Assembly: GCA_030632085.1 (NCBI GenBank) | Contig: DAOVJY010000003.1 | Location: forward strand, 23,809-87,808 | Origin: Candidatus Omnitrophota bacterium | Lineage (GTDB): Bacteria; Omnitrophota; Gorgyraeia; JAGLLT01 | DNA: 64,000 bases | Direction of reading: 5' to 3' | In this document: piece after piece, positions 2,459-17,600 of the stretch | Layout of the letters: every line of letters begins with the position of its first letter | Numbering within the stretch: position 1 is the stretch's first letter | Program-made: the position numbers and the translations under genes | Notes under the pieces: model-generated | What the model saw: only the letters and a program-made list of their open reading frames with translations | Databases searched by the model: none | What the model was told of the DNA's origin: nothing

Positions 2459-2472
2459 GCTTACCAAATTAT

Positions 2473-2565
2473 GGAGAGGTGCCTGAGTGGCCGAAAGGAG
2501 CCGCCTGCTAAGCGGTTGTTCCGTTACAAGCGGAACCCTGGGTTCGAATCCCAGCCTCTCCGCCA
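2473..2565 (+). tRNA. tRNA-Ser (anticodon GCU), long variable arm
   Basis: The cloverleaf is readable: acceptor GGAGAGG/CCTCTCC, anticodon loop CTGCTAA, long extra arm, T-arm GGTTCGAATCC, then CCA. This tRNA is the attachment site of the island. Confidence 0.85.
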
Positions 2566-2709
2566 GTGTTTTTAGCATACTTTAAAATCTCTTCACAAAC
2601 ACACCGAATTCATCATAACCTCTATATTCTTCAAGCACATATAACATCATTTAATAGCAGGCAACATCAGTTATTAACATAGCTGTATTGCCTATTTTTT
2701 TGTATTAAT

Positions 2710-2946
2710 GTGGTGAAAATGTGGTGGAATTTGAAATATTCAATTGATTTTCCTTTTGGATTTTTTTTGTATATATGGGTAGATGTTATCTTTATCAAAG
2801 AGAGCACCAAGGCCATTTTGGTTATGTTTGATAATAAAAAAGCATGGTTTCCAAAAGCCTGGATTGTGAGAATTAAGCACGACAAAGACAGCAATAAGGC
2901 GAAGATTAAAATATCTGAATATTATTGGGCTAAAAAGTTCGAATAA
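2710..2946 (+). CDS. hypothetical small protein (island cargo)
   Basis: ORF of 78 aa with no recognisable motif. Confidence 0.3.
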   Translation: MVKMWWNLKYSIDFPFGFFLYIWVDVIFIKESTKAILVMFDNKKAWFPKAWIVRIKHDKDSNKAKIKISEYYWAKKFE

Positions 2947-3045
2947 TAAGCCAAAAAATCTTTGATTTTTATCAAAAAATATGCTATCTTGAACACAGAT
3001 AAAAAAAGAAGCTCGTCTATTAATTGTTAGAAGAAAGAATAAATT

Positions 3046-3813
3046 ATGAATTTAATTAAAATTTTTATAGTAATATTCGGGATTTTATCAATCATAGGGA
3101 TTATTGTAGCTATATTGTGGGCTATCAAATCCCCACCATTAATATCAAAATTAAATTTATCTTCAACCCAAATGAATATATTTATCAATATTATTATCAT
3201 TTTTGTCATGGTCTTAACAATACTAATAATCATAACTTATTCTAATCAGCAAATTATTGAAAACCAAAAATCAACAAAAGAATATATTGAAGCCTTAAAA
3301 ACAACCACGCAAGAACGAATATCTGAAGCTAAGAAAATTACAGACTCGCAGCTTCTCAAGATGGATGAGCAAATTAAAACAATCCAAAATGAAACAAATC
3401 GCCAGATACGGATAGAAGAAAAATGGACGAATATTAAAAGGAAGCAATTGATAGAATCTTTAATTGAAGAAATCAAACAAAACCAAAGCATTTATAGTAG
3501 GCTCGAAAAAGATTTGGAAGAAGATCCTGTCAAATCTAACTTCCAAAATTTTATTACTGTTAGTTTAGAAAAATGTTTGTCTGATTCCCCCATTGATAAT
3601 GAAGAAATAAACCACCATATATTAGGTTTGTATTATTGGATAAAAGTACATGACAACAAGTTGACTGCCTCTAGAACGCCCAGCATAACATCTGAATCAC
3701 TAAAAGGTATTCTTGGGGCAGTTGTAAAAAATTATAAAGGAAATGAAAAAAGCTATACTGGCTTAGTAAATTTATTAAGCGAATATATAAAAACAATAGA
3801 AATAAAAGAATAA
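3046..3813 (+). CDS. membrane-anchored coiled-coil hypothetical protein
   Basis: Two N-terminal TM helices are followed by a long charged, heptad-like region (EYIEALKTTTQERISEAKK...). Confidence 0.5.
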   Translation: MNLIKIFIVIFGILSIIGIIVAILWAIKSPPLISKLNLSSTQMNIFINIIIIFVMVLTILIIITYSNQQIIENQKSTKEYIEALKTTTQERISEAKKITDSQLLKMDEQIKTIQNETNRQIRIEEKWTNIKRKQLIESLIEEIKQNQSIYSRLEKDLEEDPVKSNFQNFITVSLEKCLSDSPIDNEEINHHILGLYYWIKVHDNKLTASRTPSITSESLKGILGAVVKNYKGNEKSYTGLVNLLSEYIKTIEIKE

Positions 3814-3895
3814 AAAACCTCTAACAATTTCATCCACCTGACCATTACCCTCGTCGCTTAGCGTTGCGTGTCCCGGCGGGTGATGTTGACGTTAT

Positions 3896-4498
3896 ATGAA
3901 AGAGAAAATAATGAAGAATATAAAGATTATAAGCTTAATAATTGCAATCATAGCAATGATACTACTTTTACACTGCAATATTAGCGATAAAGAAAGTTTA
4001 TATACCAGCATAGGGGGTACTTTCATTGGGTTTTTGGGAGCTTTTCTAATATATCAAGTAGGTATTATGATTGATGAAAAGCGGAAAAAAGAATTGGAAG
4101 AAAAAAACACTAAATATATATACCAACTTTATAAAATGGAATTAGAAATGAATATTAGCCACATAAATGGTTTGATTAATAAAAGATGGACACCTTTTTA
4201 TAAATTGAAGACTATAACCAGAGATAAATTATGGGGTGAATTAGCAAGCTATTCCAAAGATTTAAATCTGATGCAAAAACTCAATATTATCTATGGCGAA
4301 TTTGAACTAATAAATAATAAATTTGACATTATGAATTCTGTAAGAATACATCAAAAAAATACTATAAATCAGGCTGAACAAGAACAATTGGGCAAGGAGC
4401 TTGGAGAACAACTCGAAGGGTGCATTGGTTTAGGCAAAAACGTTATTCCTATAATCCAAGAAGGCATAGAAATTTTAAATCAACAAATAAAAAGATAA
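3896..4498 (+). CDS. membrane-anchored hypothetical protein
   Basis: An N-terminal TM segment IISLIIAIIAMILLL and a second helix are followed by a soluble charged domain. Confidence 0.5.
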   Translation: MKEKIMKNIKIISLIIAIIAMILLLHCNISDKESLYTSIGGTFIGFLGAFLIYQVGIMIDEKRKKELEEKNTKYIYQLYKMELEMNISHINGLINKRWTPFYKLKTITRDKLWGELASYSKDLNLMQKLNIIYGEFELINNKFDIMNSVRIHQKNTINQAEQEQLGKELGEQLEGCIGLGKNVIPIIQEGIEILNQQIKR

Positions 4499-4601
4499 CC
4501 ATATAACAAGTCAATGCACCCGACTTTTTCTCGCCGCTTCGCTCTGGGAAAAGCTGGTAATTTCCAGCGTTAGATGAAAAATATAATAACAGAGATTTGA
4601 T

Positions 4602-5459
4602 ATGGCCTATTTAATGCATATTGGTTTTGATAATACTTCTCGGCTTTGTAGAAATGTATACTACTTTGAATATAAAGGAATTCGGTATAAATTAATTCAA
4701 AATAACATAAGAAAATGGTGCGATGTTCTTTTGACGATAATACATGAAAGCAATAACAAGGTAGATCAAAATAAAATATATATGAATGCATCGGAATTTT
4801 TAAGTGCATTGGGTTGGGAAAATGAATCAAGGGTAAAATTGAGACATTTAGGTGGACCAGGAATACCTGATAATTATAAACTTAAAAATGCAAAATGTAG
4901 GTCATTTAGCTTTCCCGAAGTACCATTTGTAGGATATATAATAGGATATAATATCTGTGTGATTCCAAAAATTGAGACAGAAGAGCAAAGAAATGCTCTT
5001 ATGCTTTTTCGAGAAGCTTTTAGCTCTAATAATAACTATCTAGCATTCTTATTTTATTGGCAAGTGTTGGAAGTGGCGAAGGGTGACGCAATTGGATGGG
5101 TAAATAAAACACTCAAGAAAAATAGAAATAAAATTAGATTATTAAATGATGAAATAGAAAGAGTGCCATTAAATGGTAAAAAACTCGGGAATTATTTATA
5201 TGAAGATTGTCGTAATGCAATTGCACATATAAAACGTAAAAAATATGGACAAACTAAAATAAAACTTGACACCCTAGATGATAATAGCAGAATTGCAATA
5301 AGCACTCTGGTAATTAGAGAATTTGCAAGATATTATATTAAAAGTAGACTAGGCCTTCAAAAGAATATGTATTTAGTGCGAAAAAATGGGAAAGGGTTTC
5401 CATTTTATGCAAATGAAGAATATACAAAACACAATAGATGCAAGATAGCATATAAATGA
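4602..5459 (+). CDS. HEPN-motif protein (putative Abi/RNase-like), hypothetical
   Basis: The C-terminal region carries Rx4H (YEDCRNAIAHIK), which fits R-N-x-x-x-H of HEPN RNases. The family assignment rests on this motif only. Confidence 0.45.
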   Translation: MAYLMHIGFDNTSRLCRNVYYFEYKGIRYKLIQNNIRKWCDVLLTIIHESNNKVDQNKIYMNASEFLSALGWENESRVKLRHLGGPGIPDNYKLKNAKCRSFSFPEVPFVGYIIGYNICVIPKIETEEQRNALMLFREAFSSNNNYLAFLFYWQVLEVAKGDAIGWVNKTLKKNRNKIRLLNDEIERVPLNGKKLGNYLYEDCRNAIAHIKRKKYGQTKIKLDTLDDNSRIAISTLVIREFARYYIKSRLGLQKNMYLVRKNGKGFPFYANEEYTKHNRCKIAYK

Positions 5460-5519
5460 TTAGGGTTTCATTAAATGCGAAAGAAAAAACGGCAGTAATA
5501 ACTAAGAACATCTAATAAT

Positions 5520-6125
5520 TTGCTCCAACATTTGATTTTGAACGTTAGCTATCAACTATATGGTGTCATCGGAGATAAAGATATGAATGTGCCTAATTTA
5601 GAAAGAGTAATAGAAACTTTTATTCCAATCACAATACCCAACGAAGCAACGTCGTTACAAATTTGGCAACATTATTTGAATATTCTTAGGTCAAAAGTAG
5701 AACCATTAGTAAAAGATTTGATGCAAAGAAGACTCATTGATTGGTATTCATTTCTAGTCCATAGCAGGCAAAGCGGTGTTCCTATAAGTGAGGATGATAA
5801 GGGTATCTACGTACATTTGAGAGTAGAACTTTCCGCATTAGCAAGTGAGCAAGAATTACGGAAACACCTCCCTCCTTTTTGTCGAATGACACAAAAGATG
5901 GTGACACCAAAACCTCCTTCACTAGATACCATTGATATACAAGCGTTAAGGGATGAAAAAATTGAGCAAGGGTGGAAGGTTTTAGGCGAAGCATCCGAAT
6001 GGGTGTTGCGGATGCTGAATTCCCATAGCCCAAATAAACCAGTTCCAGCACAAAATGTGGCCCAGTTTTTGCACTACATTGGAAATCAATTATTTATCAA
6101 AGCTGTTCAAATTCCTATGCCGTGA
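5520..6125 (+). CDS. hypothetical protein (start possibly at Met 5583)
   Basis: ORF of 201 aa. It is GC-richer than its neighbours and has no recognisable motif. Confidence 0.4.
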   Translation: MLQHLILNVSYQLYGVIGDKDMNVPNLERVIETFIPITIPNEATSLQIWQHYLNILRSKVEPLVKDLMQRRLIDWYSFLVHSRQSGVPISEDDKGIYVHLRVELSALASEQELRKHLPPFCRMTQKMVTPKPPSLDTIDIQALRDEKIEQGWKVLGEASEWVLRMLNSHSPNKPVPAQNVAQFLHYIGNQLFIKAVQIPMP

Positions 6126-6224
6126 ATGGGGAAGATATATTTAATTAAGGCACCCAACAACTCCTTGCAGTCGGTCTCGCCATCGCTCAATGGTTGAGTT
6201 CGGCCGTTAGCCGAAAATAAGAAC

Positions 6225-6812
6225 ATGAGCACAACCGACATACTGACCTTATTAGCAATAATTCTAAGTGCGATCGCAGTTGGATTTGCGGCCTATCAAG
6301 CAATTCTGAATCGAAAGGCTTTGGTAGCAGCAAGGAAATCAATTGAAATGTCTACTAGAACAAGACACATCGAAATGTTACCTAAGGCAGGTTTCGCTAT
6401 TCACGTAGATATGAAATTATCGAATTGGATATCTGATTTGAGTAAGGTAATTGAATTATCGCAACAGGCTATGGGTAACAAAGATGACGAATTACTTAAG
6501 GAATTAGCAGGGAAAGGCTTAAAGTCACCTGATCATTTAGTTGATAAATTCATGTATGAGAAAGCACCACCTTGGTTGTCCGAAATCTATATTAGTTCAG
6601 CGCAATTTTACTATGATGCAAAAGCACCGCAAGTTGCGCTTTGGGGATTTTCATCTGAAGCCGGCAATTATTCATATATACCTAGTTTTATTGAGCGGTG
6701 CGAGGATTCGATTAATCATATTCGTCAGTTTAAAAGTTATTTAGATGATATTGTACCAAGAGCCTATCTTGAAACACCGGCCAGCATAAATGATGATAAA
6801 TTCATCGGCTAA
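6225..6812 (+). CDS. membrane-anchored hypothetical protein
   Basis: An N-terminal TM helix LTLLAIILSAIAVGFAAY is followed by a soluble domain. Confidence 0.45.
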   Translation: MSTTDILTLLAIILSAIAVGFAAYQAILNRKALVAARKSIEMSTRTRHIEMLPKAGFAIHVDMKLSNWISDLSKVIELSQQAMGNKDDELLKELAGKGLKSPDHLVDKFMYEKAPPWLSEIYISSAQFYYDAKAPQVALWGFSSEAGNYSYIPSFIERCEDSINHIRQFKSYLDDIVPRAYLETPASINDDKFIG

Positions 6813-6939
6813 CAAATGGCTGAACAACCTGACGGAAGGTTACTGTAATTATGAATAAGATAAATCGCTGGGGTAGAGGTGCTTCCGTAGCTGGCCATAC
6901 GTTATGAGTAAGAGGCAGTGCCCTTTTAAAGAAAAAAAC

Positions 6940-6975
6940 TTGACTTTTATCTAATTATAGCGTAATGTACATTAC
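6940..6975 (+). promoter_or_regulatory. sigma70-like promoter (TTGACT -N17- TAATGT) overlapped by a perfect 14-bp palindrome, GTAATGTACATTAC (likely operator)
   Basis: TTGACT at 6940-6945 is followed by a 17-nt spacer and TAATGT at 6963-6968. The palindrome at 6962-6975 is self-complementary. Confidence 0.45.
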
Positions 6976-7029
6976 AGAAATAAAAGTGGTGCGTTCGAAG
7001 GGGGAACCTCCACGTTAAAAAAAGTAAAA

Positions 7030-7066
7030 CCTTCATAGCTTTTTGCTATGAGGGTTTTTTGTTTTT
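7030..7066 (+). terminator. intrinsic terminator in the leader, 48 nt upstream of the RadC-N/MTase/OLD operon
   Basis: A 10-bp stem CCTTCATAGC/GCTATGAGGG with loop TTTTT is followed by TTTTTTGTTTTT. Confidence 0.6.
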
Positions 7067-7114
7067 ACAGAACAATATTTTCTGTTGAGATTTTAAAGGA
7101 AAGGTGGTAAAATT

Positions 7115-7405
7115 ATGCCAAAGATAAAAGATTTACCAAAAGACCAAAGACCAAGAGAAAAATTATTGAAATATGGGCCAGAGTCTTTGCTCGACAAAGA
7201 ACTTTTGGCTATCTTAATCGGACACGGGCTTAAGGGCAAATCTGCCATAGAAATGGCAGAAGAATTATTAACAGAGTATAAAGACCTCAAAGGGTTAGCA
7301 GGGAAAAGATTAGATGGGTTTATGAAAATTAAGGGCATAAAAGAAGCAAAAATTATTAAAATCGCTACTGCATTTGAAATAGCAAAACGAATTTATTTTA
7401 CATAA
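7115..7405 (+). CDS. RadC N-terminal HhH domain protein (UPF0758 N-terminal region only; no JAB/MPN domain)
   Basis: IKDLPKDQRPREKLLKYGPESLLDKELLAILIGHGLKGKSAIEMAEELL...IKGI..AK matches the conserved N-terminal HhH region of RadC/YicR. The ORF ends at 96 aa without the HNHPSG-containing JAB domain. Strong RBS AAGGAAAGGTGG. Confidence 0.7.
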   Translation: MPKIKDLPKDQRPREKLLKYGPESLLDKELLAILIGHGLKGKSAIEMAEELLTEYKDLKGLAGKRLDGFMKIKGIKEAKIIKIATAFEIAKRIYFT

Positions 7406-9874
7406 ATGAATATGTCAAAAAAAGAAAACAAAACGACAATAACCGATCCATTTCAAAATAAAAAGCATATCAATTATGCTCTTGTGGAATCTACGCGTCC
7501 GATGATGTATAAAGCTCTAAAATATTGGGGCAAAAAGCCGCACAATATTTTTAGAAAGTACATCGAAAATTATACAGAGAAAAATGAGATAGTACTTGAC
7601 GCTTTTGCGGGAAGCGGTATTGCCCCATTGGAAGCAATACAGGCAAATAGAAAGGCTGTTGCGATAGATCTCAATCCTATATCCACCTTTATGATTGAAA
7701 TACTTGCTAAGCCTCTTAATTATTCAAAGTTCAGAAAATATTACAGCGAAATTTTAACAAAACTTAGCGAGGAAGAAAGAAAATTAGGGGTTTTTATTAC
7801 TAAATGTGAAAAATGTGGAAGCACTGCTAGGGTAATAGGTATTCATTGGAATGGCGATACGCCAATACTTATAAGATATGAATGTCCATGCACAAAAGGA
7901 AACCAAGGCAAAAATCCTGATAATTTTGATATCCAAATTATTAAGAAATCAGAGAAATTAAAAATTCCTTATTGGTATCCGCAAGATGAGTTTCCAAAAA
8001 CAGATTTTTTCAAATCAGTTCGAAGGGGAATTGGTGATCAATATTATAAGCTTTGGACCAAGAGAACGCTTTATTTGCTATCATTTTTGTATAAAGAAAT
8101 TGAGGATATTGATGATGAAGAAATAAAAGATTTTTTGAAATTTGCTTTTATTTCAATGATTCACCTTGTCTCAAATATGGTTTCAGCAAGAAGACCAAAA
8201 AGCAAAAGACCAGATTCTGGTAGTTGGGGAAGACCAGCATTTATTTTGCCCAAAAGACACATGGAACAAAATCCAGTTATTTTGTTTCAAAGAGCTGTTG
8301 AAGATAGGCAAGGCGTCATAAAAGCAAAAAAATCATCAGAAAAATTACTTGCAAACAAGGTAAAAATAACAAAAAACTTTCAAGAATTAGCTAACGACAA
8401 AAAAGATAAAAATTTACTCATTTTGACGATTGACACTCTGGATTTATCAAAAAATATTCCAGAAAACAGCATTGATTATGTTATAACAGATCCGCCCTAT
8501 GGTGGACTAATCCAATACTTTAGCTTGAGCAGTCTTTGGGCAATCTGGCTAAAGCATAATAACAAAAAATTTGAAATTCCCTATGAGGATGAGATAACTA
8601 TTGAACACAAAAAGGATTTTGAACGATATCATAATCTTCTCACTAAAGCATTGCGCGAAATTTATAAAGTCCTCAAACCCGGGCACTACTTAACTCTCAC
8701 TTTTCACAACAGAGAAATTAATGTTTGGAACTCTGTTATTAAGGCTGGTGCGTATTCAGGATTTGTTTTTGAAAAAATTTTATATCAACCAAATAAACGA
8801 GCTTCGGAGGCAGGAGTTGCTATGCCTTACGGTAGCGCAATAAGCGATTATTATTTGCGATTTAAGAAACCTGAAAAAGCGGGTGTGTCTGATCATCAAA
8901 AAATGGATAAAGAAGAATACGAAAGAGTTGTCGTCAAAGCCACTAAAGATATTATTGCATTAAGAAGTGAACCAACAGAAATGACTTTTATTTTGAACGG
9001 TATTTATACCGAGTTATTTTCAACAGGAAGATTTTTTGAGGGTAGCCACGACGATATTGTAAATATTCTTAAAGAAAATATCGGAAAGGTATTTGTTCTT
9101 ATTGAAAACAAGGAAGGCAAACTCGGGCCCAAATGGTGGTTAAAAAATCCAGAGGATATGCTTTTCAAACAAGTACCTTTATCAGATAGAATTGAAAAAG
9201 TAGTGCTTGATATGTTGCGTGGAAATATTAAAGTTACTTTTGATGAAATTCTACAAAAATTATTTATCACTTTCCCGAACGGGTTAACACCTGACGCAAA
9301 GGGAGTTATAGAAGTATTGAAAGAATATGCAACGACGACTGGAGATGGTCGGTGGCGATATAAACCAGAAGTAAATTATAGAGATTCTGAGCACAGCGAA
9401 ATGATTTACTATTTATCCGAAATCGGCAAAAAGGCAGGCTATAAGGTTTGGATTGGGAGTAAAGAGCAGGGCGATACTTTTAAAGATGAGAAACTTTCAA
9501 AATATTGTACTGTGCTAAATCTTAAACTTTCCGGATTTTCCGATAAAGAACTTCGCCGAATCGCAATGATAGATGTCCTTTGGTGTGACGATACTTCTGT
9601 TAAATATGTTTTTGAGATTGAAAATAGTACAAGTATTACATCTGCGATAGAAAGAGCTTCGCATATTCCGGAAGAGTACGATGTAAAAAGATTTATTGTT
9701 ATACCAGAAGAAAGACAAAAAATGCTTGAGAGAAAAATGAATGAGCCGATGTTTCAAGAAGGGTATAATAAATATAAATGGCAAACTATTCATTATGACG
9801 CATTGAAAGATTTTTATAATCTTCACAAGGGCGGCAAAACACTTAAACGCGATGATTTGTCTAACTTAAAATAA
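7406..9874 (+). CDS. DNA methyltransferase (amino-MTase, motif I then TRD/zinc-ribbon then DPPY; alpha-like order) with a roughly 350-aa C-terminal extension
   Basis: Motif X/I VLDAFAGSGIAPLEAIQANRKAVAIDLNP. Cys4 zinc ribbon CEKCGS...ECPC. Motif IV ITDPPYGG, with LKPGHYLTLTFHN after it. The C-terminal region holds a possible PD-(D/E)xK-like stretch, IDVLWCDD...YVFEIENS. Confidence 0.75.
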   Translation: MNMSKKENKTTITDPFQNKKHINYALVESTRPMMYKALKYWGKKPHNIFRKYIENYTEKNEIVLDAFAGSGIAPLEAIQANRKAVAIDLNPISTFMIEILAKPLNYSKFRKYYSEILTKLSEEERKLGVFITKCEKCGSTARVIGIHWNGDTPILIRYECPCTKGNQGKNPDNFDIQIIKKSEKLKIPYWYPQDEFPKTDFFKSVRRGIGDQYYKLWTKRTLYLLSFLYKEIEDIDDEEIKDFLKFAFISMIHLVSNMVSARRPKSKRPDSGSWGRPAFILPKRHMEQNPVILFQRAVEDRQGVIKAKKSSEKLLANKVKITKNFQELANDKKDKNLLILTIDTLDLSKNIPENSIDYVITDPPYGGLIQYFSLSSLWAIWLKHNNKKFEIPYEDEITIEHKKDFERYHNLLTKALREIYKVLKPGHYLTLTFHNREINVWNSVIKAGAYSGFVFEKILYQPNKRASEAGVAMPYGSAISDYYLRFKKPEKAGVSDHQKMDKEEYERVVVKATKDIIALRSEPTEMTFILNGIYTELFSTGRFFEGSHDDIVNILKENIGKVFVLIENKEGKLGPKWWLKNPEDMLFKQVPLSDRIEKVVLDMLRGNIKVTFDEILQKLFITFPNGLTPDAKGVIEVLKEYATTTGDGRWRYKPEVNYRDSEHSEMIYYLSEIGKKAGYKVWIGSKEQGDTFKDEKLSKYCTVLNLKLSGFSDKELRRIAMIDVLWCDDTSVKYVFEIENSTSITSAIERASHIPEEYDVKRFIVIPEERQKMLERKMNEPMFQEGYNKYKWQTIHYDALKDFYNLHKGGKTLKRDDLSNLK

Positions 9875-9878
9875 ATTT

Positions 9879-10721
9879 ATGTTAAAAAAGAATCCTCAAA
9901 AAAAAGCAAAATACGACAAACGTAACATCCTCAACGATTTAACTGGTAGGGATTGGTTGTTATTAACCAAAAGCGTTTGGATAAGCGAAAAGTGTGCTGA
10001 TGATAAGTTCGCGTTTCAACATCCAGCTCCTTTTTTAATCAATGATATTAAAAAACTGATTAGATTTTTTACTAAAAAAAATATGACAGTGCTTGATCCG
10101 TTTTGCGGTTCAGGGACAACCTTAGTCGCAAGCGCGCAAGAGAATAGAAAAGGAATCGGAATAGATTTAAGTAAAAAATATTGCCAAATGAGCCGAAAAC
10201 GCTTGCAAGATTTAAAGTTGAAAAAAAATCAACAAGTAGTTTGCGGGGATTCTCTCAAAAAAATATCTCAAATTAAAGGGAAGATTGATTATTGCGTAAC
10301 TTCGCCACCGTACCACAATATTTTAAGACATAATGGCGGTGGGTTGAGGGAGGCCAAAGCAAAAAATATTAGAAATGGTGCAAGAATTGGTGTTGAATAT
10401 TATTCCGATGACAAACGGGATTTAGGTAATCAGGCGCAATATAAAGATTTTCTCGCGCTATTAAAAAAAGTAATGATAGAGATTTATAAAAAATTGAGGG
10501 ACAAAAAATACTCCTCAATAATTATTAGTGATTTTACTGTAAATAAAAAAGAAACAAATGCAAGCGGTGATGTAATTCGGTTCATGCAAAACATAGGTTT
10601 TAGTTTTGAAGGTATGGTTGTGCTTGTTCAAGACAATAAGCCCCTTTATCCTTTTGGTTATCCTTATGCCTACAAAATGAATCACCATCATCAATATATT
10701 TTGAATTTTAGAAAACTATGA
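9879..10721 (+). CDS. small DNA methyltransferase (SPPY motif; N4-cytosine/N6-adenine amino-MTase), paralogous to the N-terminal module of the upstream MTase
   Basis: HPAPFLINDIKKLIRFFTKKNMTVLDPFCGSGTTLVASAQENRKGIGIDLS (motifs X-I), then CVTSPPYHN (motif IV). Overlaps or abuts the neighbouring genes. Confidence 0.75.
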   Translation: MLKKNPQKKAKYDKRNILNDLTGRDWLLLTKSVWISEKCADDKFAFQHPAPFLINDIKKLIRFFTKKNMTVLDPFCGSGTTLVASAQENRKGIGIDLSKKYCQMSRKRLQDLKLKKNQQVVCGDSLKKISQIKGKIDYCVTSPPYHNILRHNGGGLREAKAKNIRNGARIGVEYYSDDKRDLGNQAQYKDFLALLKKVMIEIYKKLRDKKYSSIIISDFTVNKKETNASGDVIRFMQNIGFSFEGMVVLVQDNKPLYPFGYPYAYKMNHHHQYILNFRKL

Positions 10722-12382
10722 ACAGAGTTTTACTAACAAAATTAAAAATAAAAAATTTAGGACCCATTAAAGAAGATGAAATTTCTTTTAATAATTTTAC
10801 ATTCTTTGTTGGAAGAAATAATGCTGGGAAGTCACATTATCTGAAAGCAATTGAATTATTACTTTCTACAGGAATAAAAAAAGAACAAATTTCTAAATTG
10901 CAACACGACAAGAATCAGCCGATTGTTATTGAAGGGGATTTTAAAGGTGTTAGTGATTTTACCGATTTGGTAACAGTAAGTAATCACAGACAAGCAATTG
11001 AGAGCGCAATAAAAGATGGGATGTTCAAAATTGTTTCTGTGTTAGATTCTGAATCAGGCGCACAGCTGGGTATTTATAAAGAGGATGGTTCTTTGCATAA
11101 TCCGGGTGGGTTCTCTGGTAATCTATTGAAAGTTTTACCGGATATCATATCAATCCCCGCGACAGCAGATACTGTACAAGAGCTAGCTGATAAATCAACT
11201 ACCGCTTTAGGAAAACTAAAAAAAGAAGTAATGAGTTCCTTTTTTCAAGAGCTAGCAAGCAAAACAAAAACTGCTTTATCAGACTTAGATGATTTTTTGC
11301 ACAGTCAAGATGAGGGGGTTCGTTCTAAAGCGATAGCTAAATTTGAAATAGGATTAAAAGAAGAATTCACGGGAGAATTTAGTGATATTGTACCTTCAGT
11401 TGAGTTTGGTTTGCCAGATGAGGCTGTAATTGCAAAGGGAATGAAAATTTTACTTGATGATGGATATAAAACAGAGGTCGAGCAAAAAGGACATGGTTTA
11501 CAAAGAGCAACATTATTAGCTCTTTTGAAATTATTAGCAAAAAGTGGGAAAAAATACCAAGACCGCCCTGCCCCCATATTTTTAATTGGAGAGTTAGAAT
11601 CTTTTCTTCACCCCTATGCTCAGCGCGAGATGGCAAATGCTTTAATTAAGATGATGGAACGGTATCAGATAGTAACAACTACACATTCACCATTTATCGT
11701 TACTCCAGCAACTATTGAAGGTTACCGCAGAGTTAGAAAAACCAAGGAGAATGGCGCCAAAAATATCGCCCTAGATCCTTCAAATGTTGATGTGAGTTTA
11801 ATCAAACGACATCTTGAGCGCCGTGGAAATCTTGAGGGGTTGTTTGCCGATAGGGTTATTTTGATCGAGGGCAGCCACGATGAAAATTTCTACGAGCGTC
11901 TAAAAACAATTTTTAATATTTCTTCTCCACAGGGAAAATTTACACTTTTCATCAAGGCCGACGGCAAGAAACAATTAAGACTTGCTAGAAAGTTTTATCA
12001 ACAGATGAGTTTTGATGATATTGCTGTAATATGCGATTTAGATTATCTCTTTAGTCGCGATGTAGAGTATCTACTCGAGAAGTTGGGATTAGAAAAAGAG
12101 TTGCCTAATAAATTTCGTGAACATATTGACTGGCAAAACGATAGAGAGTCAAAGTTAGAGTATATTGTGGAAAAATTAAGTGAGAAAGGAGAGCCTAATG
12201 GATTTGGTGACCTAATCCAAGGTTTACAGGACAAAAGAATTTTTGTCTTACGTCACGGTGCACCAGAAATGTATTACAAAAATAACAAAGGAGAGAAGAA
12301 TGGCTGGGTTCATCTCAATTCACAAAATGATTTGTTAGAGGTGGAGTATTTAAAGAAATTGATAAAATTAGTTTTAATGTAA
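10718..12382 (+). CDS. OLD-family ATP-dependent nuclease (ABC-type ATPase + C-terminal Toprim)
   Basis: Walker A GRNNAGKSH. ABC signature/Walker B region IFLIGELESFLHP. Toprim glutamate ILIEGSHDE and DxD (VICDLDY). Overlaps the upstream MTase by 4 nt. Confidence 0.75.
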   Translation: MNRVLLTKLKIKNLGPIKEDEISFNNFTFFVGRNNAGKSHYLKAIELLLSTGIKKEQISKLQHDKNQPIVIEGDFKGVSDFTDLVTVSNHRQAIESAIKDGMFKIVSVLDSESGAQLGIYKEDGSLHNPGGFSGNLLKVLPDIISIPATADTVQELADKSTTALGKLKKEVMSSFFQELASKTKTALSDLDDFLHSQDEGVRSKAIAKFEIGLKEEFTGEFSDIVPSVEFGLPDEAVIAKGMKILLDDGYKTEVEQKGHGLQRATLLALLKLLAKSGKKYQDRPAPIFLIGELESFLHPYAQREMANALIKMMERYQIVTTTHSPFIVTPATIEGYRRVRKTKENGAKNIALDPSNVDVSLIKRHLERRGNLEGLFADRVILIEGSHDENFYERLKTIFNISSPQGKFTLFIKADGKKQLRLARKFYQQMSFDDIAVICDLDYLFSRDVEYLLEKLGLEKELPNKFREHIDWQNDRESKLEYIVEKLSEKGEPNGFGDLIQGLQDKRIFVLRHGAPEMYYKNNKGEKNGWVHLNSQNDLLEVEYLKKLIKLVLM

Positions 12383-12550
12383 CCATCCTCACACACCCAC
12401 TATTTTGTATACCGTCGCCTTCTGAAAAAATTTTGGCAAAGCCAAAAGGCAGGCAGGCAAAAAGAAAAGGAGATCCGATGGCGGATGAATTTTTGCCCAT
12501 TTTCCAGTTCTACGAAGTAAAAAGCCGAAAAAATAATAAAAAAACTACTT

Positions 12551-12890
12551 GACAAATAGGTTAAGTAATGATATAGTTAAATTAACAAGGTAAAAGAGTT
12601 CTTTCAAATGACTATTGATATTGGAAGTAAATTAAAGGCGAAAAGAGTGCAGATGAATTTCACTCAGTTGGAACTTGCAACAAAGGTTGGAGTTAGCGAG
12701 AGTTACATCTGCCAGATTGAGAATGGGAAGATGGTATCGATCAAAAAGCTTGAGCAAATAGCAAACGCGGTAGGGTGCAAAGCAAAAGATCTTCTCTAGG
12801 ATATTTTTTTAATTTGAAACTTGACAAATAAGTTAACTAACATATATTTTTTGCCCTATAACTTTACAAATAGGTTAAGTAAGGAGGTGA
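12551..12890. promoter_or_regulatory. three copies of an operator-like motif, TTGACAAATAGGTTAAGTAA, around the XRE regulator gene
   Basis: Copies at about 12551-12570, 12821-12841 (variant ...AAGTTAACTAA) and 12866-12886. Each includes a -35-like TTGACA or TTTACA. Confidence 0.5.
12608..12799 (+). CDS. XRE-family HTH transcriptional regulator (cI/Cro-like) of the island
   Basis: QLELATKVGVSESYICQIENGK is a typical XRE helix-turn-helix. The gene is flanked by iterated operator-like repeats. Confidence 0.7.
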   Translation: MTIDIGSKLKAKRVQMNFTQLELATKVGVSESYICQIENGKMVSIKKLEQIANAVGCKAKDLL

Positions 12891-12895
12891 GAAAA

Positions 12896-13056
12896 TGATA
12901 GAGATCAAATTTAGTAGGCAGCAATTGACAGAATTGGATAAAGAAAGATACGCGCGAATTCTTAAGAAAGTTATTACTCAAATGTCGAACCTGAATAAAA
13001 GTGCTAGCTTACCAAAGAAAATTATATTCACGGAACTAAAAATTATTTTTATGTAA
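12896..13056 (+). CDS. small hypothetical protein (53 aa)
   Basis: ATG follows an AAGGAGGTG RBS. It is below the ORF-track size cutoff and was read manually. Confidence 0.35.
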
Positions 13057-13073
13057 GAAAAGAGAGAAATAAA

Positions 13074-13247
13074 GTGCTAGAAAGCGAAATTTTATTTGTA
13101 GAAGATATTTCTAGATTGTTTAGCATTTCACAGAATACCATTCAAAGGAAAAAATGGAGAAAACAAACAGGAATGCCTTTACATAAAATAGGCAAGAAAT
13201 TGTGTGGGTTTAAGCGCGAAATTGAGGAGTGGGCTAAGTCTAAATGA
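13074..13247 (+). CDS. xis: excisionase / AlpA-like HTH DNA-binding protein (Xis)
   Basis: GTG start, 58 codons. ISRLFSISQNTIQRKKWRK...GFKREIEEW is Xis/HTH_17-like. Its stop overlaps the integrase start (ATGA). Confidence 0.55.
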   Translation: MLESEILFVEDISRLFSISQNTIQRKKWRKQTGMPLHKIGKKLCGFKREIEEWAKSK

Positions 13248-14344
13248 GAAGAAAACTCCCAGGTGTCAGAGAAATAATTAAGGGGGATAAATACGAAGTC
13301 AACTATGTAGTTGCTGGCAGGAGATATCAGTATCGCATTAATGCCGCATCTCTTACTGAAGCACACAACAAGAAATTAGAAGATATGGCAGATAAGCGTA
13401 AAAATATATCTACGCTATTAGATAATGGAGAACGTCTTAATACCGGATTTTCTGACGCCTGGGAGAGATTATACGCTGATTTAATTGCGGATAACCTACC
13501 CAGAAAGACAATACAGCATTACGCCAAGACTTATAGTAGGATGTTTAATGAGTTTATAAATTTAAGATTTCCGGATTTGATGAATTTCGGTCAGCTGAGC
13601 TTACCGTTCTTCCGGGAATATAAAAATTACTATGTTAATAATCTCAATAGACCTAGGGGCTGGAGAGCAGAGTTGATATTTGTCAAAGCGATAATAAAGC
13701 GCCTCTACGCCTTGGGTTATTGCAGCAAAGAGCTCATAGACAGCTTAAAGGAGATAAAGAAACCCCGGGCTGTCAAAAAGGAACACCCCCATATACCTAA
13801 TAGCAAAATAAAGGAATTGTTTCAATATATAAAAAATAGCAGGCCAGATTATTACTATCCTTTGTATTTTATTAGTAGGACAGGCAGAAGAATTAATGAG
13901 ACAACGCTTATAGAGCGGAGAGATGTAGAATGGAAAGGGTTTAGCCCTGCAAGGCTTAATATAAGAGCCGAGACTACAAAAACGAAACAAAATGCTCCTC
14001 TTGCAAATCTTGACCAAGAATTAAAGCAGGTTATAAGCGAAGCATATAAGGCAGGTTTAAAATGCAAGGAGCCTTATTTATTTCTTAATATGTTTAACAG
14101 AAGATGCACGCCCAGCAAGGTAAGGGAATGTCTTAAAGGAGCAAGTAAGCAGATTTTGGGAGTGGAAATTACTCCTCACTATTTCAGGCATAGGTTTTTA
14201 ACAGAATGCGGCAAAGCCAATGTACCTATCGTGGATGTTATGGCTATTTCTGGCATTAAGGATATAAATGTTATAGTTAATTATTATAGTCACAGTACAG
14301 TAGAAGGACAGACAAAAGTGCTTGAAGTTAGCAGGGTTTGGTGA
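13244..14344 (+). CDS. int: tyrosine recombinase / phage-type integrase
   Basis: The C-terminal catalytic region reads HYFRHRFLTE...VNYYSH (R, H-x-x-R and Y). It sits next to the attR repeat. Confidence 0.8.
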   Translation: MRRKLPGVREIIKGDKYEVNYVVAGRRYQYRINAASLTEAHNKKLEDMADKRKNISTLLDNGERLNTGFSDAWERLYADLIADNLPRKTIQHYAKTYSRMFNEFINLRFPDLMNFGQLSLPFFREYKNYYVNNLNRPRGWRAELIFVKAIIKRLYALGYCSKELIDSLKEIKKPRAVKKEHPHIPNSKIKELFQYIKNSRPDYYYPLYFISRTGRRINETTLIERRDVEWKGFSPARLNIRAETTKTKQNAPLANLDQELKQVISEAYKAGLKCKEPYLFLNMFNRRCTPSKVRECLKGASKQILGVEITPHYFRHRFLTECGKANVPIVDVMAISGIKDINVIVNYYSHSTVEGQTKVLEVSRVW

Positions 14345-14407
14345 TACAATTATGACGAATTTATGTGGTGGAGGATGTGGTGAAAGGAACATTTTGAATA
14401 TAAAAGT

Positions 14408-14431
14408 GTTCGAATCCCAGCCTCTCCGCCA
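14408..14431. repeat. attR: 24-bp direct repeat of the tRNA-Ser 3' end
   Basis: Identical to 2542-2565. Confidence 0.8.
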
Positions 14432-14480
14432 ATATAGCAAAGAGCCTATAGCATAGAGCGTAGGACAAAGATAGATTGCG

Positions 14481-14495
14481 CAGCCTCTCCGCCAG
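14481..14495. repeat. second partial repeat of the tRNA-Ser 3' end (15 bp, CAGCCTCTCCGCCAG), possibly the remnant of an earlier integration
   Basis: Matches 2552-2566, including the first base after the tRNA. Confidence 0.5.
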
Positions 14496-14680
14496 CATTA
14501 TGGCATCTTATCCTTTGATTCTAAAAAGCCTAATATGAATTATTTTAAATAGGCTTTAGGCCATAAACAAGATATTATAGGTCAATAGCTATTTTTTCTC
14601 TTGCCTCAAACTATTAGGTTATGTTATGATAAGCACTAATAAATTAAAAAAAATAGATAAACAATAGAAGGATTAGAATT

Positions 14681-17600
14681 GTGGACCAGATTCGAATGTT
14701 CTGCAGCAAAACCGAGCTTTCTAAACGCCCTAATATTAAATACGCTAAAACGCGACATAGTAGAAGTCCCCGCCTTAGCTATCTTGTGACATCAATCCTG
14801 ACGATTTTAGTTGCAATTTTTGTTTTAACTAAGGTAGTTGCTGCAGCACCTTCCTTTTTGAATTCGGAACAAAACGATATAAATTACTCCTTTAATCTTC
14901 TGGATGCCGGCATGAAAGGGGTGTTCAATATTGGCCCCGGACAAGGCACTGAAAAACGTTCATTCGATGAAACCATTGAGAAAAACGTTTTGAAATTCGG
15001 CTACTCGATACCCAAAGGGTCAGTTATGGGCGTTTGGTCACAGAGGTTTCCATCTGAGTTAGGAGCGGACGCAGTGGATGCGGTTAGGATTGGCGTCAAG
15101 GTGCCGAATCCTGAGCAGTTGCAGCAAGTGTTCGTAAAGGTAGAGATCAAAGGGGAAAAGGCCGTGCAGACTATCCCGCTTCATCTTGAACTTGGCTGGA
15201 ACTCTATTCGAGAATCTATCAACTGGAACACGATAGGTAATCTGAAGGAAGCTGTTTTTGTAGTCAGTCCAATCGGCGGTGGTGAGTCGGTGGAGGGGAC
15301 ATTGTATTTTGATATTGATTTCTACAAGCTGACGTCCTTGCAGAAAAATTTCATCTTCGTAAAAATTAGCTTGGTCTTTGTAATCAGCTTATGTCTTGCC
15401 TTAGTGAGCGCCTTTCTTGGTGGGCTGTTTGGCCGAAGTAAAAGCGGCGATTCTTCCTCCTTCGCTTTTCGAGCTTCGCAGGACAAGCCGGAGGTACCGA
15501 CTCTATCAAGGCTTAAGCGAGATTTCTTCTATGGCATAGTGGCTGTATTGATTGCAGGAGTTGCGTTTTGGATCTACTCCAGAGGCTCAATAAGTCCCTT
15601 GGAAGCAGGTTTTAGTCTTACTTTTCTGGTTATAGGGTTAATGGGCGCGGTAATTGCTGAAGTTTTGAAATTCGGCCTCACCGGCAAACATCTTACACCT
15701 CGTGAAGTTTTTCAAAATATTCTCGTAACAGGTTTCATTGCGGCCGGGTCAAGTAGGTTAGGAGTTTTACATGCTCCTTCTACTTGGACTGAATTATTTA
15801 TGTTAAACAAAGTTATCGCAACGCTTGCCTTCTTGGTGTATCACATTTCCAACGCCTTCTCGCTGGCATCTAGCGGCAAGCATACGAAAGCTTTTACAGG
15901 AGCATTGATTATTGGGACACCCTGCCTTTTAAATTGGTTGATGTTGTTACAAAATGTAATCCTTCTACAAACACTGGCAAGCAGTATGACTTTGGGGCTG
16001 CTTTCCGCCTGGCCGAAAATTCTTGAGATTATAGGTCGAGTTTTTGTCGTGTTTGTTTTCAATGAAGCTTTTATAAATGGAATGAGTTTTGCCACTAAGG
16101 GCAAGATGCTTAAGGCGTCCAAGGCTCACCTGTTTATTTTATTGGTTTCTTTAGGTGTTATCATAGCTCCAATGATTGCGGATCTGGGATCAACTACAGC
16201 TGTCGCCGGACTACCGGTAATGCTTAGAGCCATCATTGCTATTTTAACAACCATGCTATCCTTTGCGGGGCTCTGGGGAGAAGTGTATCTTATCACAGGA
16301 GTAGCCCTGGATGGCGGTTATCACAGGGCGCCTTCATGGAGGAGTGTCTTTAGTCATGTTACCACAGGCATGAGAAAAGGTATGGTATACAGCGGCATTT
16401 TGATAGCGCTTCTGTATGCGTTAAGTATGGTCTTGGGCGCACGCTTCACGCAGACAATAATAAGCTCTTTACCGATAATGATTGGAATTCTTGCCGGTGC
16501 ATTGATTTTTCCATTAATTAAGACTATTATTGAGACGTTTGATGGCAGCCAACCGTTTTCCGAACGTATGCGGCATAACTACCGTGATAAGACCTTATAT
16601 GCCAGAGGCGCAGTTGCCGGATGCGGATTTGCTTATGCGCTTACTCACGATTTTTTTCAACTAAACATGTCTGATAGGATCATATTTGGTCTCATCGTTG
16701 GCCTTATCGCATCCGCGGGCGTGAGTATCTTAAGGGATTTCACGTATGCTCGCAGAGGCCAGGGGCGAATCCAGACATGGAAACTTTATTTTACTGACGC
16801 GCTCTTAGGTGCTTTTATTGGAAGCGCCTCAGCATTCTATTTGGACTCTTTTCAGGTGCCGGTGGTCGTTGAGAAATTCAAACTCTATACGAATGCCGGT
16901 TTTTCTGCGAGGGAGTACATTACCTATCCGCTGGTTTGCAAGTGGGGCCGCATTGATTTGGGGACGTATACCGGCGGGACAAAACTTCTTTTTACCGAAT
17001 CTTTAGCCGGTGTCATCAACTGGACTATTGCTGCAGGGCTGTTCGCCATAAACAAGGTATTTTTACAGGCGTTTTTTGAGAAACACACAGCCCCGATTAA
17101 GTTCTTCTTCTCAAAGGCGGGTTTTGCTCAGTTAATCGAGCATATAATCTATGTCTTGCGGTGGGGGTTGTGGATGTCGCCTATTATATGGACCTTCTTG
17201 CGCATGATGCCGGATCCAACCTGGTACAACCAGGACGGGGGGATTCGCACCCTGTTTGCCATTTACCATGACGCGACGATGTCTCCCGGGGCATTTAGAG
17301 CCTGGAGTCTGCAGATTTTTATTTATATTCTGGCGTTTGACTTCTTCCGGGTTCTTATTTGGATGGATCACATGGGTTTGCGCGTTGCCACATTAGTTAA
17401 CTTGAGCTTCATTGGCCTGGACAGGCTTGATGAACGAATTGCGCGTTTCATCGGCCCGGCGGCAGCACAACGCTACATCCCGGAGGCCGTTAAACGTTTT
17501 TGTACATGGGGACCGTTACTTATTCCTTTCTATCTTCCGCGCGGGAAGGCGTGGGATTATGCGTGGAGCACGTCAGAAACTATGCAAAACGCTATGATAG

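Follow-up and report, generated by a model that had tools for sequence, protein, structure and literature searches.

Gene content and setting of the locus

The window analysed here is a stretch of 64,000 nucleotides, in which the locus of interest consists of four defence ORFs on the plus strand: 7115-7405 (96 aa), 7406-9874 (822 aa), 9879-10721 (280 aa) and 10718-12382 (554 aa). They encode, in this order, a RadC_N-only protein, a single-chain R-M protein, a companion methyltransferase (M280) and an OLD ATPase/Toprim nuclease. A check of the ORFs reproduced the close spacing reported in a preliminary description of this DNA: the TAA stop codon of the first gene is immediately followed by an ATG (7405/7406), 4 nt separate the second gene from the third (9874/9879), and an ATGA overlap (10718-10721) joins the M280 gene to the OLD gene. 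Homologues of the 822-aa protein begin at the second ATG (position 7412, giving 820 aa), so that the gap between the first two genes may be 6 nt. Loci compared with the window copy, that is, the copy in the stretch studied, are designated by L and a number (for example, L003).

The AT-rich tRNA-Ser island in which these genes had been placed was recovered as an integrase-borne element of 11.9 kb, with a GC content of 0.29-0.39 against 0.40-0.48 in the flanks. It lies at a tRNA-Ser(GCT) gene (2473-2565, plus strand; detected by ARAGORN and as an Rfam tRNA), the 3' end of which (2542-2565) forms the left attachment repeat. The right attachment repeat, an exact direct repeat of these 24 nt, is found at 14408-14431 (plus strand), just after the gene for the tyrosine integrase of the island (13244-14344, plus strand; Pfam Phage_integrase, E 1e-12).

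Upstream of the locus, a terminator-like hairpin followed by a T-run (7026-7058, plus strand) ends the preceding gene. It stands in place of a small, controller-like gene of the XRE-type HTH family that is located 5' of the RadC_N gene in 10 of 14 close relatives, and regulation of the window copy, from which this gene is missing, may therefore differ from that of its relatives. Hairpins 3' of the OLD gene (12431-12486) likely mark the end of the transcription unit, and the 116 nt after the OLD stop codon are kept in L084, L091 and L093. Beyond them lies a regulatory module of the island (12547-12885), made up of a gene for a 63-aa XRE-type HTH protein (12608-12799, plus strand) and, on either side of it, three copies in all of a 25-nt repeat that contains TTGACA (12547, 12819 and 12861). 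This HTH protein shares only about 30% identity with the controller-like HTH of the related cassettes. A promoter scan gave 22 candidates for 24.5 expected from shuffled sequence, and we therefore claim no promoter.

A predicted restriction nuclease in a methyltransferase polypeptide

The product of the second gene (likely start 7412, plus strand) combines a permuted N6/N4 methyltransferase, winged helices and a nuclease domain on one chain. The methyltransferase part (Pfam N6_N4_Mtase, E 9e-19) carries motif I as FAGSG (7604-7621), a cysteine cluster (7805-7891) and the catalytic DPPY (aa 362-365, 8489-8500); the residues D65, F67, G69 and G71, as well as D362-P-P-Y365, are invariant or at least 90% conserved among 22 homologues. 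The PglXI model also matches this region (aa 152-460, E 4e-53). Two winged-helix-like domains follow at about 8909-9361.

The preliminary description had stated that no classical restriction endonuclease is present, leaving the OLD protein as the only clear nuclease. Our analysis of the C-terminus contradicts both statements. The PADLOC model PDLC03534 (REase_II), which represents type II REases of the R.NmeDI family and is 351 positions long, aligns through its positions 178-326 with residues 663-806 (9392-9823; E 1.9e-8). In a precomputed Pfam table, the corresponding family PF27126 (NmeDI_C) is assigned to the 822-aa protein and, among the 120 homologues listed, to nearly every full-length one. 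This is a domain of the PD-(D/E)xK type, and among its putative catalytic residues D723 (9572-9574) and E739 (9620-9622) are invariant and E737 (9614-9616) is at least 90% conserved, in sets of 22 and 61 homologues. The identification rests on the PADLOC model and the precomputed table; a Pfam scan of the C-terminal 322 aa with a model set without PF27126 gave a weak winged-helix match alone. Searches of PDB sequences, with the 822-aa protein or with a 22-sequence profile, returned methyltransferases only, so that a fold comparison was needed.

Judging from these profiles, a predicted endonuclease domain with conserved acidic residues sits within the methyltransferase polypeptide, although it could be a binding-only or inactive module. 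Since the 822-aa protein would bring its own nuclease, the RadC_N protein, the fusion and the second methyltransferase can be taken together as a complete R-M unit. For the same reason we do not regard the operon as a system of methylation plus OLD, an attractive reading that the C-terminal domain shows to be wrong. The domain-profile check proposed with that reading did place all four ORFs in named families, and it is the C-terminus of the longest one that overturned the view of a locus devoid of restriction enzyme. The restriction nuclease appears to lie hidden at the end of a protein that databases name 'DNA methyltransferase' or 'hypothetical'.

The companion methyltransferase and the RadC_N protein

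The 280-aa companion (9879-10721, plus strand) is also an N6_N4_Mtase (Pfam E 2e-27; PADLOC MTase_II, E 4e-35), with motif I as DPFCGSG (10095-10115) and an SPPY motif (aa 142-145, 10302-10313); the earlier recognition of two methyltransferases with DPPY and SPPY motifs was thus correct. An M280 homologue adjoins the R-M gene in all 16 close loci in which sequence is retained after that gene. It is adjacent in 13 distant loci as well, in both orientations, and many relatives at 40-45% identity have none.

The first gene of the cassette (7115-7405, plus strand) had been assigned to the RadC N-terminal helix-hairpin-helix family, and the profile search agrees (Pfam PF20582, UPF0758_N, E 2e-27). 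The 96-aa protein covers positions 1-81 only of a profile of 212, and lacks the C-terminal JAB/MPN metalloprotease domain. We considered whether a radC gene interrupted by an insertion had left it behind as a remnant, and exclude this, as it belongs to a stand-alone family of 96-112-aa proteins that moves with R-M genes. The stand-alone family numbers about 300 proteins, and all 120 relatives listed carry PF20582 alone, in 66-135 aa. Across 13 close cassette loci the protein is 82-91% identical, and in 8 of 11 further contexts sampled a family member is encoded directly 5' of a single-chain R-M enzyme. Beyond what current annotation records, RadC_N-only proteins thus recurrently head operons of single-chain R-M enzymes. 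This position hints at an accessory function, and we infer a role as DNA-binding accessory or regulator.

A mobile cassette with a variable slot at its 3' end

The RadC_N, R-M and M280 genes form a cassette that is 80-90% identical at the nucleotide level across very different phyla. Nucleotide homology starts at 7107-7110 and stops at 10714-10722. Besides the window copy and an identical copy of the locus in a second sample (L002), hosts include Patescibacteria, Saccharibacteria, Nitrospinota, Gammaproteobacteria and other MAGs (84-92% amino acid identity); the Zixibacteria copy has no RadC_N gene. A spread reaching from CPR bacteria to Proteobacteria, Nitrospinota and one MAG labelled archaeal is a striking case of recent transfer across phyla. 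As to possible vehicles, a tblastn search of PLSDB plasmids with the 822-aa protein found distant methyltransferase matches only, and none of these plasmids yielded a relative of the OLD protein. A phage-borne origin was also considered, and was dropped when IMG/VR scans gave no close relatives of either protein.

Of the 16 copies with downstream sequence, 12 have an OLD, Shedu nuclease or AAA_15 ATPase gene in the position behind the cassette. OLD itself is present in three of them (the window, L003 and L091) and missing from the other 13. The remaining occupants are Shedu (L007-L010 and L015) and an AAA_15/21 ATPase (L005, L006 and L014), and elsewhere there is nothing. These counts do not bear out the fixed pairing of OLD with two methyltransferases and a RadC helix-hairpin-helix module that had been proposed.

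The OLD nuclease and its R-M neighbours

The occupant of the slot in the window (10718-12382, plus strand; 554 aa) is a Class-1-like OLD protein (PADLOC Old, E 9e-71; Pfam AAA_15 and OLD-like_TOPRIM), whose best match in the PDB is TsOLD (6p74). [quoted passage not shown] As had been reported from the sequence, the motifs are intact: Walker A (GRNNAGKSH, 10811-10834), the Toprim EGxHD (E384, 11867-11869) and D440-x-D442 (DLD, 12035-12043) are invariant across 21 OLD homologues. The homologue alignment also shows G32-H40, K257-R263, G291, E292, E294 and H323 to be invariant, and the C-terminal region of about 100 aa is conserved. Nucleotide homology with other loci runs from 10717-10724 to about 12382, so to speak between the borders of the gene.

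The clade of OLD proteins of about 555 aa to which it belongs is linked to the RadC_N, R-M and M280 trio in only three lineages, which are not sisters, and R-M contexts are intermingled in its phylogeny. For instance, the window OLD is 83% identical to one located behind an unrelated M+R pair (L084), and the OLD of L003 is 90% identical to one beside a D12 methylase (L089). About half of the loci of the clade adjoin R-M genes, of types I, II and III. At least 15 OLD genes are immediately adjacent to R-M genes on the same strand, and seven of these share an ATGA overlap with M280, an REase gene or hsdM. OLD is found behind type II M+R pairs (L084, L090, L092, L093-L097, L105 and L127), 3' of type III mod/res genes (L099 and L109), 5' of a type I operon (L103) and, within another, between hsdM and hsdS (L107). 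Others have no R-M gene within several kb (3-8 kb; for example, L083, L110, L112 and L126), an absence that is uncertain for several loci because many OLD contigs are short.

The synteny comparison thus shows the OLD clade occurring independently of these methyltransferases, beside unrelated R-M genes or none. Of the conserved co-occurrence proposed earlier, the part concerning this particular trio did not stand, and what holds is a looser association of the clade with R-M operons in general. Such a recurrent joining to R-M operons goes beyond current annotation, in which Class 1 OLDs are isolated genes. Because 4-nt overlaps with unrelated R-M genes recur, and because OLD can be found inside a type I operon, the protein may have a functional link with restriction and be less than fully autonomous. 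The ABC-ATPase classification of Krishnan et al. 2020 is said to describe ABC-anchored R-M-like systems, among which OLD-R-M linkage may already figure.

Possible roles of the two modules

We think that the locus probably consists of two separable defence modules, a mobile type II R-M cassette and a Class-1-like OLD. The first module (7115-10721) comprises RadC_N, the single-chain protein with its DPPY methyltransferase, winged helices and NmeDI-type nuclease, and the SPPY methyltransferase, whose target is most likely the opposite strand of an asymmetric site, in the manner of Eco57I-type systems. On its own, the first module would recognise and cut unmethylated incoming DNA. The second (10718-12382) is the OLD that fills the variable 3' slot of the cassette, presumably co-translated through the ATGA stop/start overlap. 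It would most likely provide a second, autonomous layer of defence, nicking or degrading DNA whatever its methylation state. As the examples of P2 Old, PrrC and PARIS suggest, it may come into play when a phage evades or disables restriction.

A different view of the same four genes, in which the methyltransferases mark self and OLD is the sole ATP-dependent effector on unmethylated DNA, forming one fixed and undescribed system, can draw on their common orientation and translational coupling, on the intact OLD and on the recurrence of the four-gene order in L003 and L091. We nevertheless judge it extremely unlikely, as the 822-aa protein has a conserved restriction-type nuclease domain of its own, 13 of 16 cassettes with downstream sequence do without OLD, and the trio is met in only three non-sister OLD lineages. 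Moreover, the activity reported for Class 1 OLDs is non-specific exonuclease or nicking, with methylation sensing not mentioned (PMC10568477, PMC12392090). The R-M cassette being self-contained and the OLD gene separately mobile, we do not consider the locus a new fixed four-gene immune system. The locus might also be inactive, a decaying or domesticated cargo with orphan or epigenetic methyltransferases, a dead nuclease domain and a housekeeping OLD like archaeal Cran1. The missing controller-like HTH gene would fit such a fate, as would the degraded R-M gene copies seen elsewhere (L019, L086 and L158) and the report of an OLD-family protein with a non-defence role (PMC12796447). However, the four ORFs are full length with every catalytic motif intact, they reside in a low-GC integrase island of which the second sample holds an identical copy, and the neighbourhoods of both families are mostly made of defence genes; inactivity is therefore very improbable.

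A more serious question is whether OLD is an integrated partner of restriction, either silenced by or monitoring the R-M enzyme and firing upon phage anti-restriction, or processively degrading the ends and nicks that restriction makes. The frequent same-strand adjacency and overlaps described above, the gene lodged between hsdM and hsdS, and at least two independent associations of OLD with the same trio all point in this direction. Precedents exist: PrrC is silenced by its linked type I enzyme (PMC2610378), PARIS is triggered by Ocr, and in BREX loci OLD-ABC/Toprim modules have been described as backup effectors (PMC12839542). Proteins of Class 1 act as 5'-3' exonucleases or as nickases (PMC10568477, PMC12392090), and degradation of ends would matter in small-genome hosts without RecBCD. 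Yet the R-M partners are unrelated (type I, IIP-like, IIS-like, III and single-chain fusions), which makes a specific protein-protein interface unlikely; several members of the clade have no R-M gene nearby, the trio works with other slot occupants or none, and no sensor domain was identified in OLD. On balance we find such a partnership rather doubtful, and tend to prefer two separable modules. A broader proposal, which we advance tentatively, is that the OLD of about 555 aa represents an R-M-coupled class, a portable plug-in effector on type I, II and III operons that finishes restricted DNA or fires when restriction is blocked, and that in parallel single-chain (type IIB/IIC/IIG) R-M enzymes have in RadC_N a subunit or regulator so far overlooked. 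In any case, the presence of a Class-1-like OLD clade on R-M operons of every type makes it a tractable system in which to study the deployment of OLD together with first-line immunity.

Comparison with known systems

As supposed in the preliminary description, the four-gene set corresponds to no catalogued system. GajA of Gabija is likewise an OLD-family ATPase/Toprim nuclease, but the PADLOC GajA models match down to E 3e-24, much more weakly than Old, and at 575-598 aa the GajA chains matched in the PDB exceed the window OLD by about 25-45 aa. Beside it there is no GajB helicase (UvrD/PcrA/Rep-like), the downstream genes being the 63-aa HTH, small ORFs and the integrase. Retrons, with their Class 3 OLD, would require an RT domain, of which there is none among the neighbours, and an Rfam scan of 2300-14800 returned the tRNA only, with no msr/msd or other RNA. 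In the case of PARIS, the AriA model (E 3e-34) covers aa 141-328 only, far below the Old model, and a separate AriB is absent, though a relationship to fused PARIS may exist. Despite the PglXI match, the island has no PglZ, BrxC or BrxL gene of BREX. Matches to mad2 of MADS are weak (E 6.5e-9 and 3e-15), MAD3 scores 30 bits for an NCBIfam cutoff of 420, and the other mad genes are absent.

The closest relatives of the window OLD in organisation are the Class 1 proteins (P2 Old, Thermus scotoductus OLD 6P74 and Vibrio cholerae OLD), which share its length of about 550 aa, the ABC ATPase with a dimerisation insert and the Toprim domain with E and DxD, and which also have no UvrD-like helicase, reverse transcriptase or separate AriB. 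Class 1 was defined as isolated single genes lacking conserved neighbours (Schiltz 2019; PMC6755086, PMC10568477). The clade described here contradicts this textbook context, being repeatedly spliced onto R-M operons, where its gene often stands last or in the interior and overlaps a neighbour at the stop and start codons, and it has the conserved C-terminal region of about 100 aa. ABC-ATPase-linked nucleases with modular partners on a methylation-based operon are also known from PrrC with EcoprrI, RloC, PARIS (AriA/AriB) and the backup effectors of BREX and BREX-related loci (PMC2610378, PMC11464382, PMC12839542). However, PrrC, RloC and AriB are tRNases, the OLD-ABC/Toprim backup effectors were described for BREX and not for type I, II or III R-M, and the window OLD, unlike those R-M-linked effectors, is a single fused polypeptide.

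For the first module, a stand-alone RadC_N gene immediately 5' of a single-chain R-M gene, as in the window, is found, at a distance of 1-4 nt, with BcgI-like type IIB and MmeI/Eco57I-like type IIG enzymes (L156-L178), the R-M architectures of which are unrelated (HSDR_N_2, N6_Mtase and Eco57I with a Methylase_S subunit, or an 1118-aa Eco57I/MmeI-like protein). In the papers that we found, RadC_N is not described as a component of these R-M enzymes. Eco57I-type systems (type IIC/IIG) resemble the window in having a methyltransferase and a PD-(D/E)xK nuclease on one polypeptide and a second, stand-alone methyltransferase within the operon. In contrast, the nuclease of Eco57I and MmeI is N-terminal and their methyltransferase belongs to the gamma class (N6_Mtase), whereas the window protein starts with a permuted N6_N4 (PglXI/DUF1156-like) methyltransferase and ends with the NmeDI_C nuclease, with winged helices in between. 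R.NmeDI of Neisseria meningitidis is an experimentally characterised type II REase of 351 aa (PMC2095814), and the C-terminal half of this family shares homology with 145 aa at the C-terminus of the 822-aa protein. Whereas NmeDI is a stand-alone REase whose partner methyltransferase is encoded by a gene of its own, nmeDIM, the window has the C-terminal domain of NmeDI only, fused to an amino-methyltransferase.

The four-gene block and its island

The four genes lie on the forward strand with exactly the boundaries proposed in the preliminary description: RadC_N (96 aa, 7115-7405), a restriction-modification (R-M) fusion (822 aa, 7406-9874), the methyltransferase M280 (280 aa, 9879-10721) and OLD (554 aa, 10718-12382). 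Reading of the junctions confirmed that the TAA of RadC_N is followed by the ATG of the R-M gene without spacer (7405/7406) and that M280 and OLD share an ATGA stop/start overlap (10718-10721); by ORF coordinates, 4 nt separate the R-M gene from M280 (9874/9879). Since relatives of the 822-aa protein start at the second ATG, 7412, the first spacer may in fact be 6 nt. In pattern scans, a terminator-like hairpin was found 5' of the block (7026-7058) and hairpins 3' of it (12431-12486), with just three short 5-pair terminator-like matches inside, so that one transcription unit fits; the promoter scan, though, gave no more than chance.

Domain searches placed UPF0758_N, the N-terminal HhH domain of RadC, in the 96-aa protein (E 2e-27), N6_N4_Mtase in both the 822-aa and 280-aa proteins, and AAA_15 plus OLD-like TOPRIM domains in the 554-aa protein (PADLOC 'Old', E 9e-71). 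All the motifs quoted previously were recovered, and those of the OLD family (Walker A G32-H40, E384, D440-x-D442) are invariant.

The AT-rich tRNA-Ser island is equally real (GC 0.29-0.39 inside versus 0.40-0.48 outside). Its left end is marked by tRNA-Ser(GCT) (2473-2565), the 3' end of which is repeated exactly over 24 nt at 14408-14431, just past a tyrosine integrase (13244-14344); this gives an island of 11.9 kb. The island also carries five ORFs at 3046-6812. Two of them, of 255 and 200 aa, are predicted to encode membrane/coiled-coil proteins, another encodes a MauJ-domain protein of 285 aa (E 6e-19), and the products of the other two (201 and 195 aa) match no family; all five may have additional roles in defence or abortive infection. 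In the interval from OLD to the integrase lies a 63-aa HTH_3 gene (12608-12799), flanked by a 25-nt TTGACA-containing repeat in three copies (12547, 12819 and 12861, spanning 12547-12885) that resemble operator/promoter sites for a regulator of the island. Directly beyond the right end, a 2097-aa protein (14681-20974) combines many N-terminal transmembrane segments with GH94 (cellobiose/cyclic beta-1,2-glucan phosphorylase-type) domains.

A nuclease domain in the R-M fusion

The locus had been thought to contain no classical restriction endonuclease. This is contradicted by residues 663-806 of the 822-aa protein, which match a 351-position PADLOC model for a type II restriction endonuclease (REase; E 1.9e-8). 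Precomputed Pfam annotation gives N6_N4_Mtase and PF27126 NmeDI_C, a combination shared, among the 120 homologues listed, by nearly every full-length one; R.NmeDI, 351 aa long, has been characterised as a type II restriction endonuclease (PMC2095814). Across two alignments (22 and 61 homologues, 35-90% identity), H663, D723 and E739 do not vary and E737 is conserved at least 90%; the pattern IDVxW...FEvENsT places D...ExE on two neighbouring strands. The AlphaFold2 model of residues 480-822 (pLDDT 85.9) contains two winged-helix-like units and then an alpha-beta-beta-beta-alpha-beta core. In public records, the R-M fusion is named 'hypothetical protein' or 'DNA methyltransferase'.

A mobile cassette with a variable 3' slot

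The R-M fusion family (1007 matches, typically 780-836 aa) spans CPR bacteria and many archaeal lineages. A scan limited to one genome per species yielded 80 loci, with which the window genes were compared by tblastn and blastn. RadC_N, the R-M fusion and M280 recur as a unit, at 84-92% amino-acid and 80-89% nucleotide identity, in MAGs labelled Gammaproteobacteria, Falkowbacteria, Nomurabacteria, Saccharibacteria, Nitrospinota, 'uncultured archaeon' and Zixibacteria, the last without RadC_N. Between the window and homologous loci L003-L020 and L091, nucleotide homology runs from 7107-7110 to 10714-10722, with sharp edges a few bases before the start codon of the first gene and after the stop codon of the last; neither flanking repeats nor a mobilisation mechanism was found. 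Ten of 14 close loci have a gene for a 68-70-aa XRE-type HTH protein, typical of R-M controllers, ending 4-6 nt 5' of RadC_N (for example L003:394-606, L008:548-760 and L016:587-796). It is absent at 6813-7114 of the window, where its place is taken by a terminator-like hairpin together with a strong Shine-Dalgarno sequence.

The position 3' of M280 (the slot) could be followed in 16 copies. OLD fills it in three (window, L003, L091). Five have a Shedu SduA_C nuclease there (L007:7829-8860, L008:4390-5328, L009:4039-5040, L010 and L015:5043-6050), that of L009 starting by an ATGA overlap as OLD does, and three a 459-463-aa AAA_15/AAA_21 ATPase (L005:4135-5526, L006:11337-12728, L014:2686-4062), of which L019 keeps a remnant; L011, L012, L013 and L016 have no relevant gene there. 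More distant fusions (35-50% identity) are accompanied by an M280 homologue in either orientation, or by none. From these comparisons, the trio is an R-M cassette that is self-sufficient and highly mobile and whose 3' accessory slot varies in content.

RadC_N as a leader gene

The 96-aa protein belongs to a stand-alone UPF0758_N (PF20582-only) family with 307 matches; the 120 relatives listed measure 66-135 aa and have no JAB domain. Eleven further members were sampled for context (L156-L166, L175-L178), and in eight the gene lies directly 5' of a single-chain R-M gene of one of three unrelated architectures: a BcgI-like HSDR_N_2 + N6_Mtase + Eco57I protein of 665-669 aa (L156/157, L158, L161/162, L166, L175/176, L178; RadC_N at, for instance, L156:5001-5318 and L178:298-636), in most cases with a Methylase_S subunit nearby, a 1118-aa Eco57I/MmeI-like type IIG enzyme (L165, RadC_N at 4001-4306), or an N6_N4 + NmeDI_C fusion (L164). 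The other three (L159/160, L163, L177) have no R-M gene after RadC_N, their neighbours being topoisomerase VI, topoisomerase I or housekeeping genes. From the eight contexts out of 11, RadC_N recurs as the gene that opens single-chain R-M operons, a role for which our literature search found no description; from its HhH fold we infer a DNA-binding accessory or regulator. In L178, a stand-alone protein of 398 aa whose sole annotation is NmeDI_C (641-1837) is encoded after RadC_N and before the BcgI-like gene; this nuclease domain is thus also in circulation as a subunit of its own in operons headed by RadC_N.

The OLD clade and its R-M partners

The preliminary description proposed the four genes as one system of their own. 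This reading does not hold: OLD and the trio are each found without the other, OLD occurring independently of the methyltransferases. Homologues of about 555 aa are common (53-83% identity), and a metagenome scan gave about 45 OLD-clade loci; among these and the cassette loci, the trio adjoins OLD only in L091, L003 and the window. These three OLDs are not mutual closest relatives: that of L003 shares 90% identity with the L089 OLD, placed behind an adjoining D12 methylase, and that of the window is 83% identical to the OLD of L084, sited behind an unrelated methylase and REase pair. At the nucleotide level, OLD homology sets in at its ATG (10717-10724) and stops with the stop codon, except in L084, L091 and L093, where it extends 116 nt further. 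This stretch of about 116 nt (12383-12498), two hairpins included, is conserved with these three loci despite different upstream genes.

The partners are diverse. OLD lies directly behind complete type II pairs: an N6_N4 methylase with a REase (PADLOC E 5e-96 for the REase; L084, L090, L092), a fused D12 + N6_N4 methylase with a REase (E 1e-64; L093-L097), a C5 methylase with REase and Vsr (L105), or a methylase with a MutH-like nuclease (L127); it also occurs behind type III mod/res (L099, L109), in front of hsdR-hsdM (L103) and near other methylases or REases (L086, L100, L101, L116, L120). In L107 (1076-8720) it is part of a tight type I operon, hsdR-hsdM-OLD-unknown-hsdS, with 4-11-nt overlaps throughout, whose 355-aa unknown matches nothing in Pfam or PADLOC. 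An R-M gene is immediately adjacent on the same strand in 15 loci and within a few genes in about 8 more; in several others (L083, L110, L112, L126) none was seen within 3-8 kb, and many contigs are too short to tell. The C-terminal ~100 residues of OLD (aa 454-554, window 12077-12382) are conserved in the clade and not covered by the Old models of Pfam and PADLOC, with F509, G514, P516, E517, Y519, K527 and D538 invariant; they could be a sensor or partner module.

Proposed mechanism

The architecture, the conservation of the catalytic residues, the modular make-up and the statistics of linkage were observed directly, and a mechanism can be proposed beside them. The single-chain enzyme would recognise its site via the winged-helix and methyltransferase region, methylate one strand through its DPPY methyltransferase, a motif typical of m6A enzymes, and cut unmodified DNA with the NmeDI-like domain. 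M280, with the SPPY motif common in m4C enzymes, would modify the opposite strand, as Eco57I-type systems do. OLD would be co-expressed and form a second layer that works on its own. Among Class 1 OLDs, those characterised act without specificity, as 5'-3' exonucleases or as nickases (PMC10568477, PMC12392090), and the classical phenotype of P2 Old is tied to RecBCD loss, Old killing recBC- cells (PMC10568477).

The main rival is a tighter coupling, in which OLD would guard restriction or process its products. The ATGA start of OLD overlaps the stop codon of an unrelated upstream gene (M280, a REase or hsdM) in seven loci, and such overlaps, like the embedding of OLD in a type I operon, favour coupling. 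Precedents exist in PrrC-EcoprrI (PMC2610378), in PARIS and in BREX loci, from which OLD-ABC/Toprim 'backup effectors' have been reported (PMC12839542). The very diversity of the R-M partners, however, speaks against it, as do the clade members without R-M.

Comparison with known systems

PADLOC-type models would call the locus 'type II R-M' plus 'Old'. The attachment of OLD to R-M operons is conceptually anticipated, with precursors in studies of BREX and of ABC-ATPase conflict systems. By the definition given in reviews, Class 1 OLDs are isolated genes, 107 of 837 lying in 'species-specific operons' (PMC6755086, PMC10568477). In the present clade, by contrast, operonic attachment to classical R-M is found at the level of the clade and whatever the R-M type, and this type-independent joining exceeds the description of Class 1 given in those reviews.
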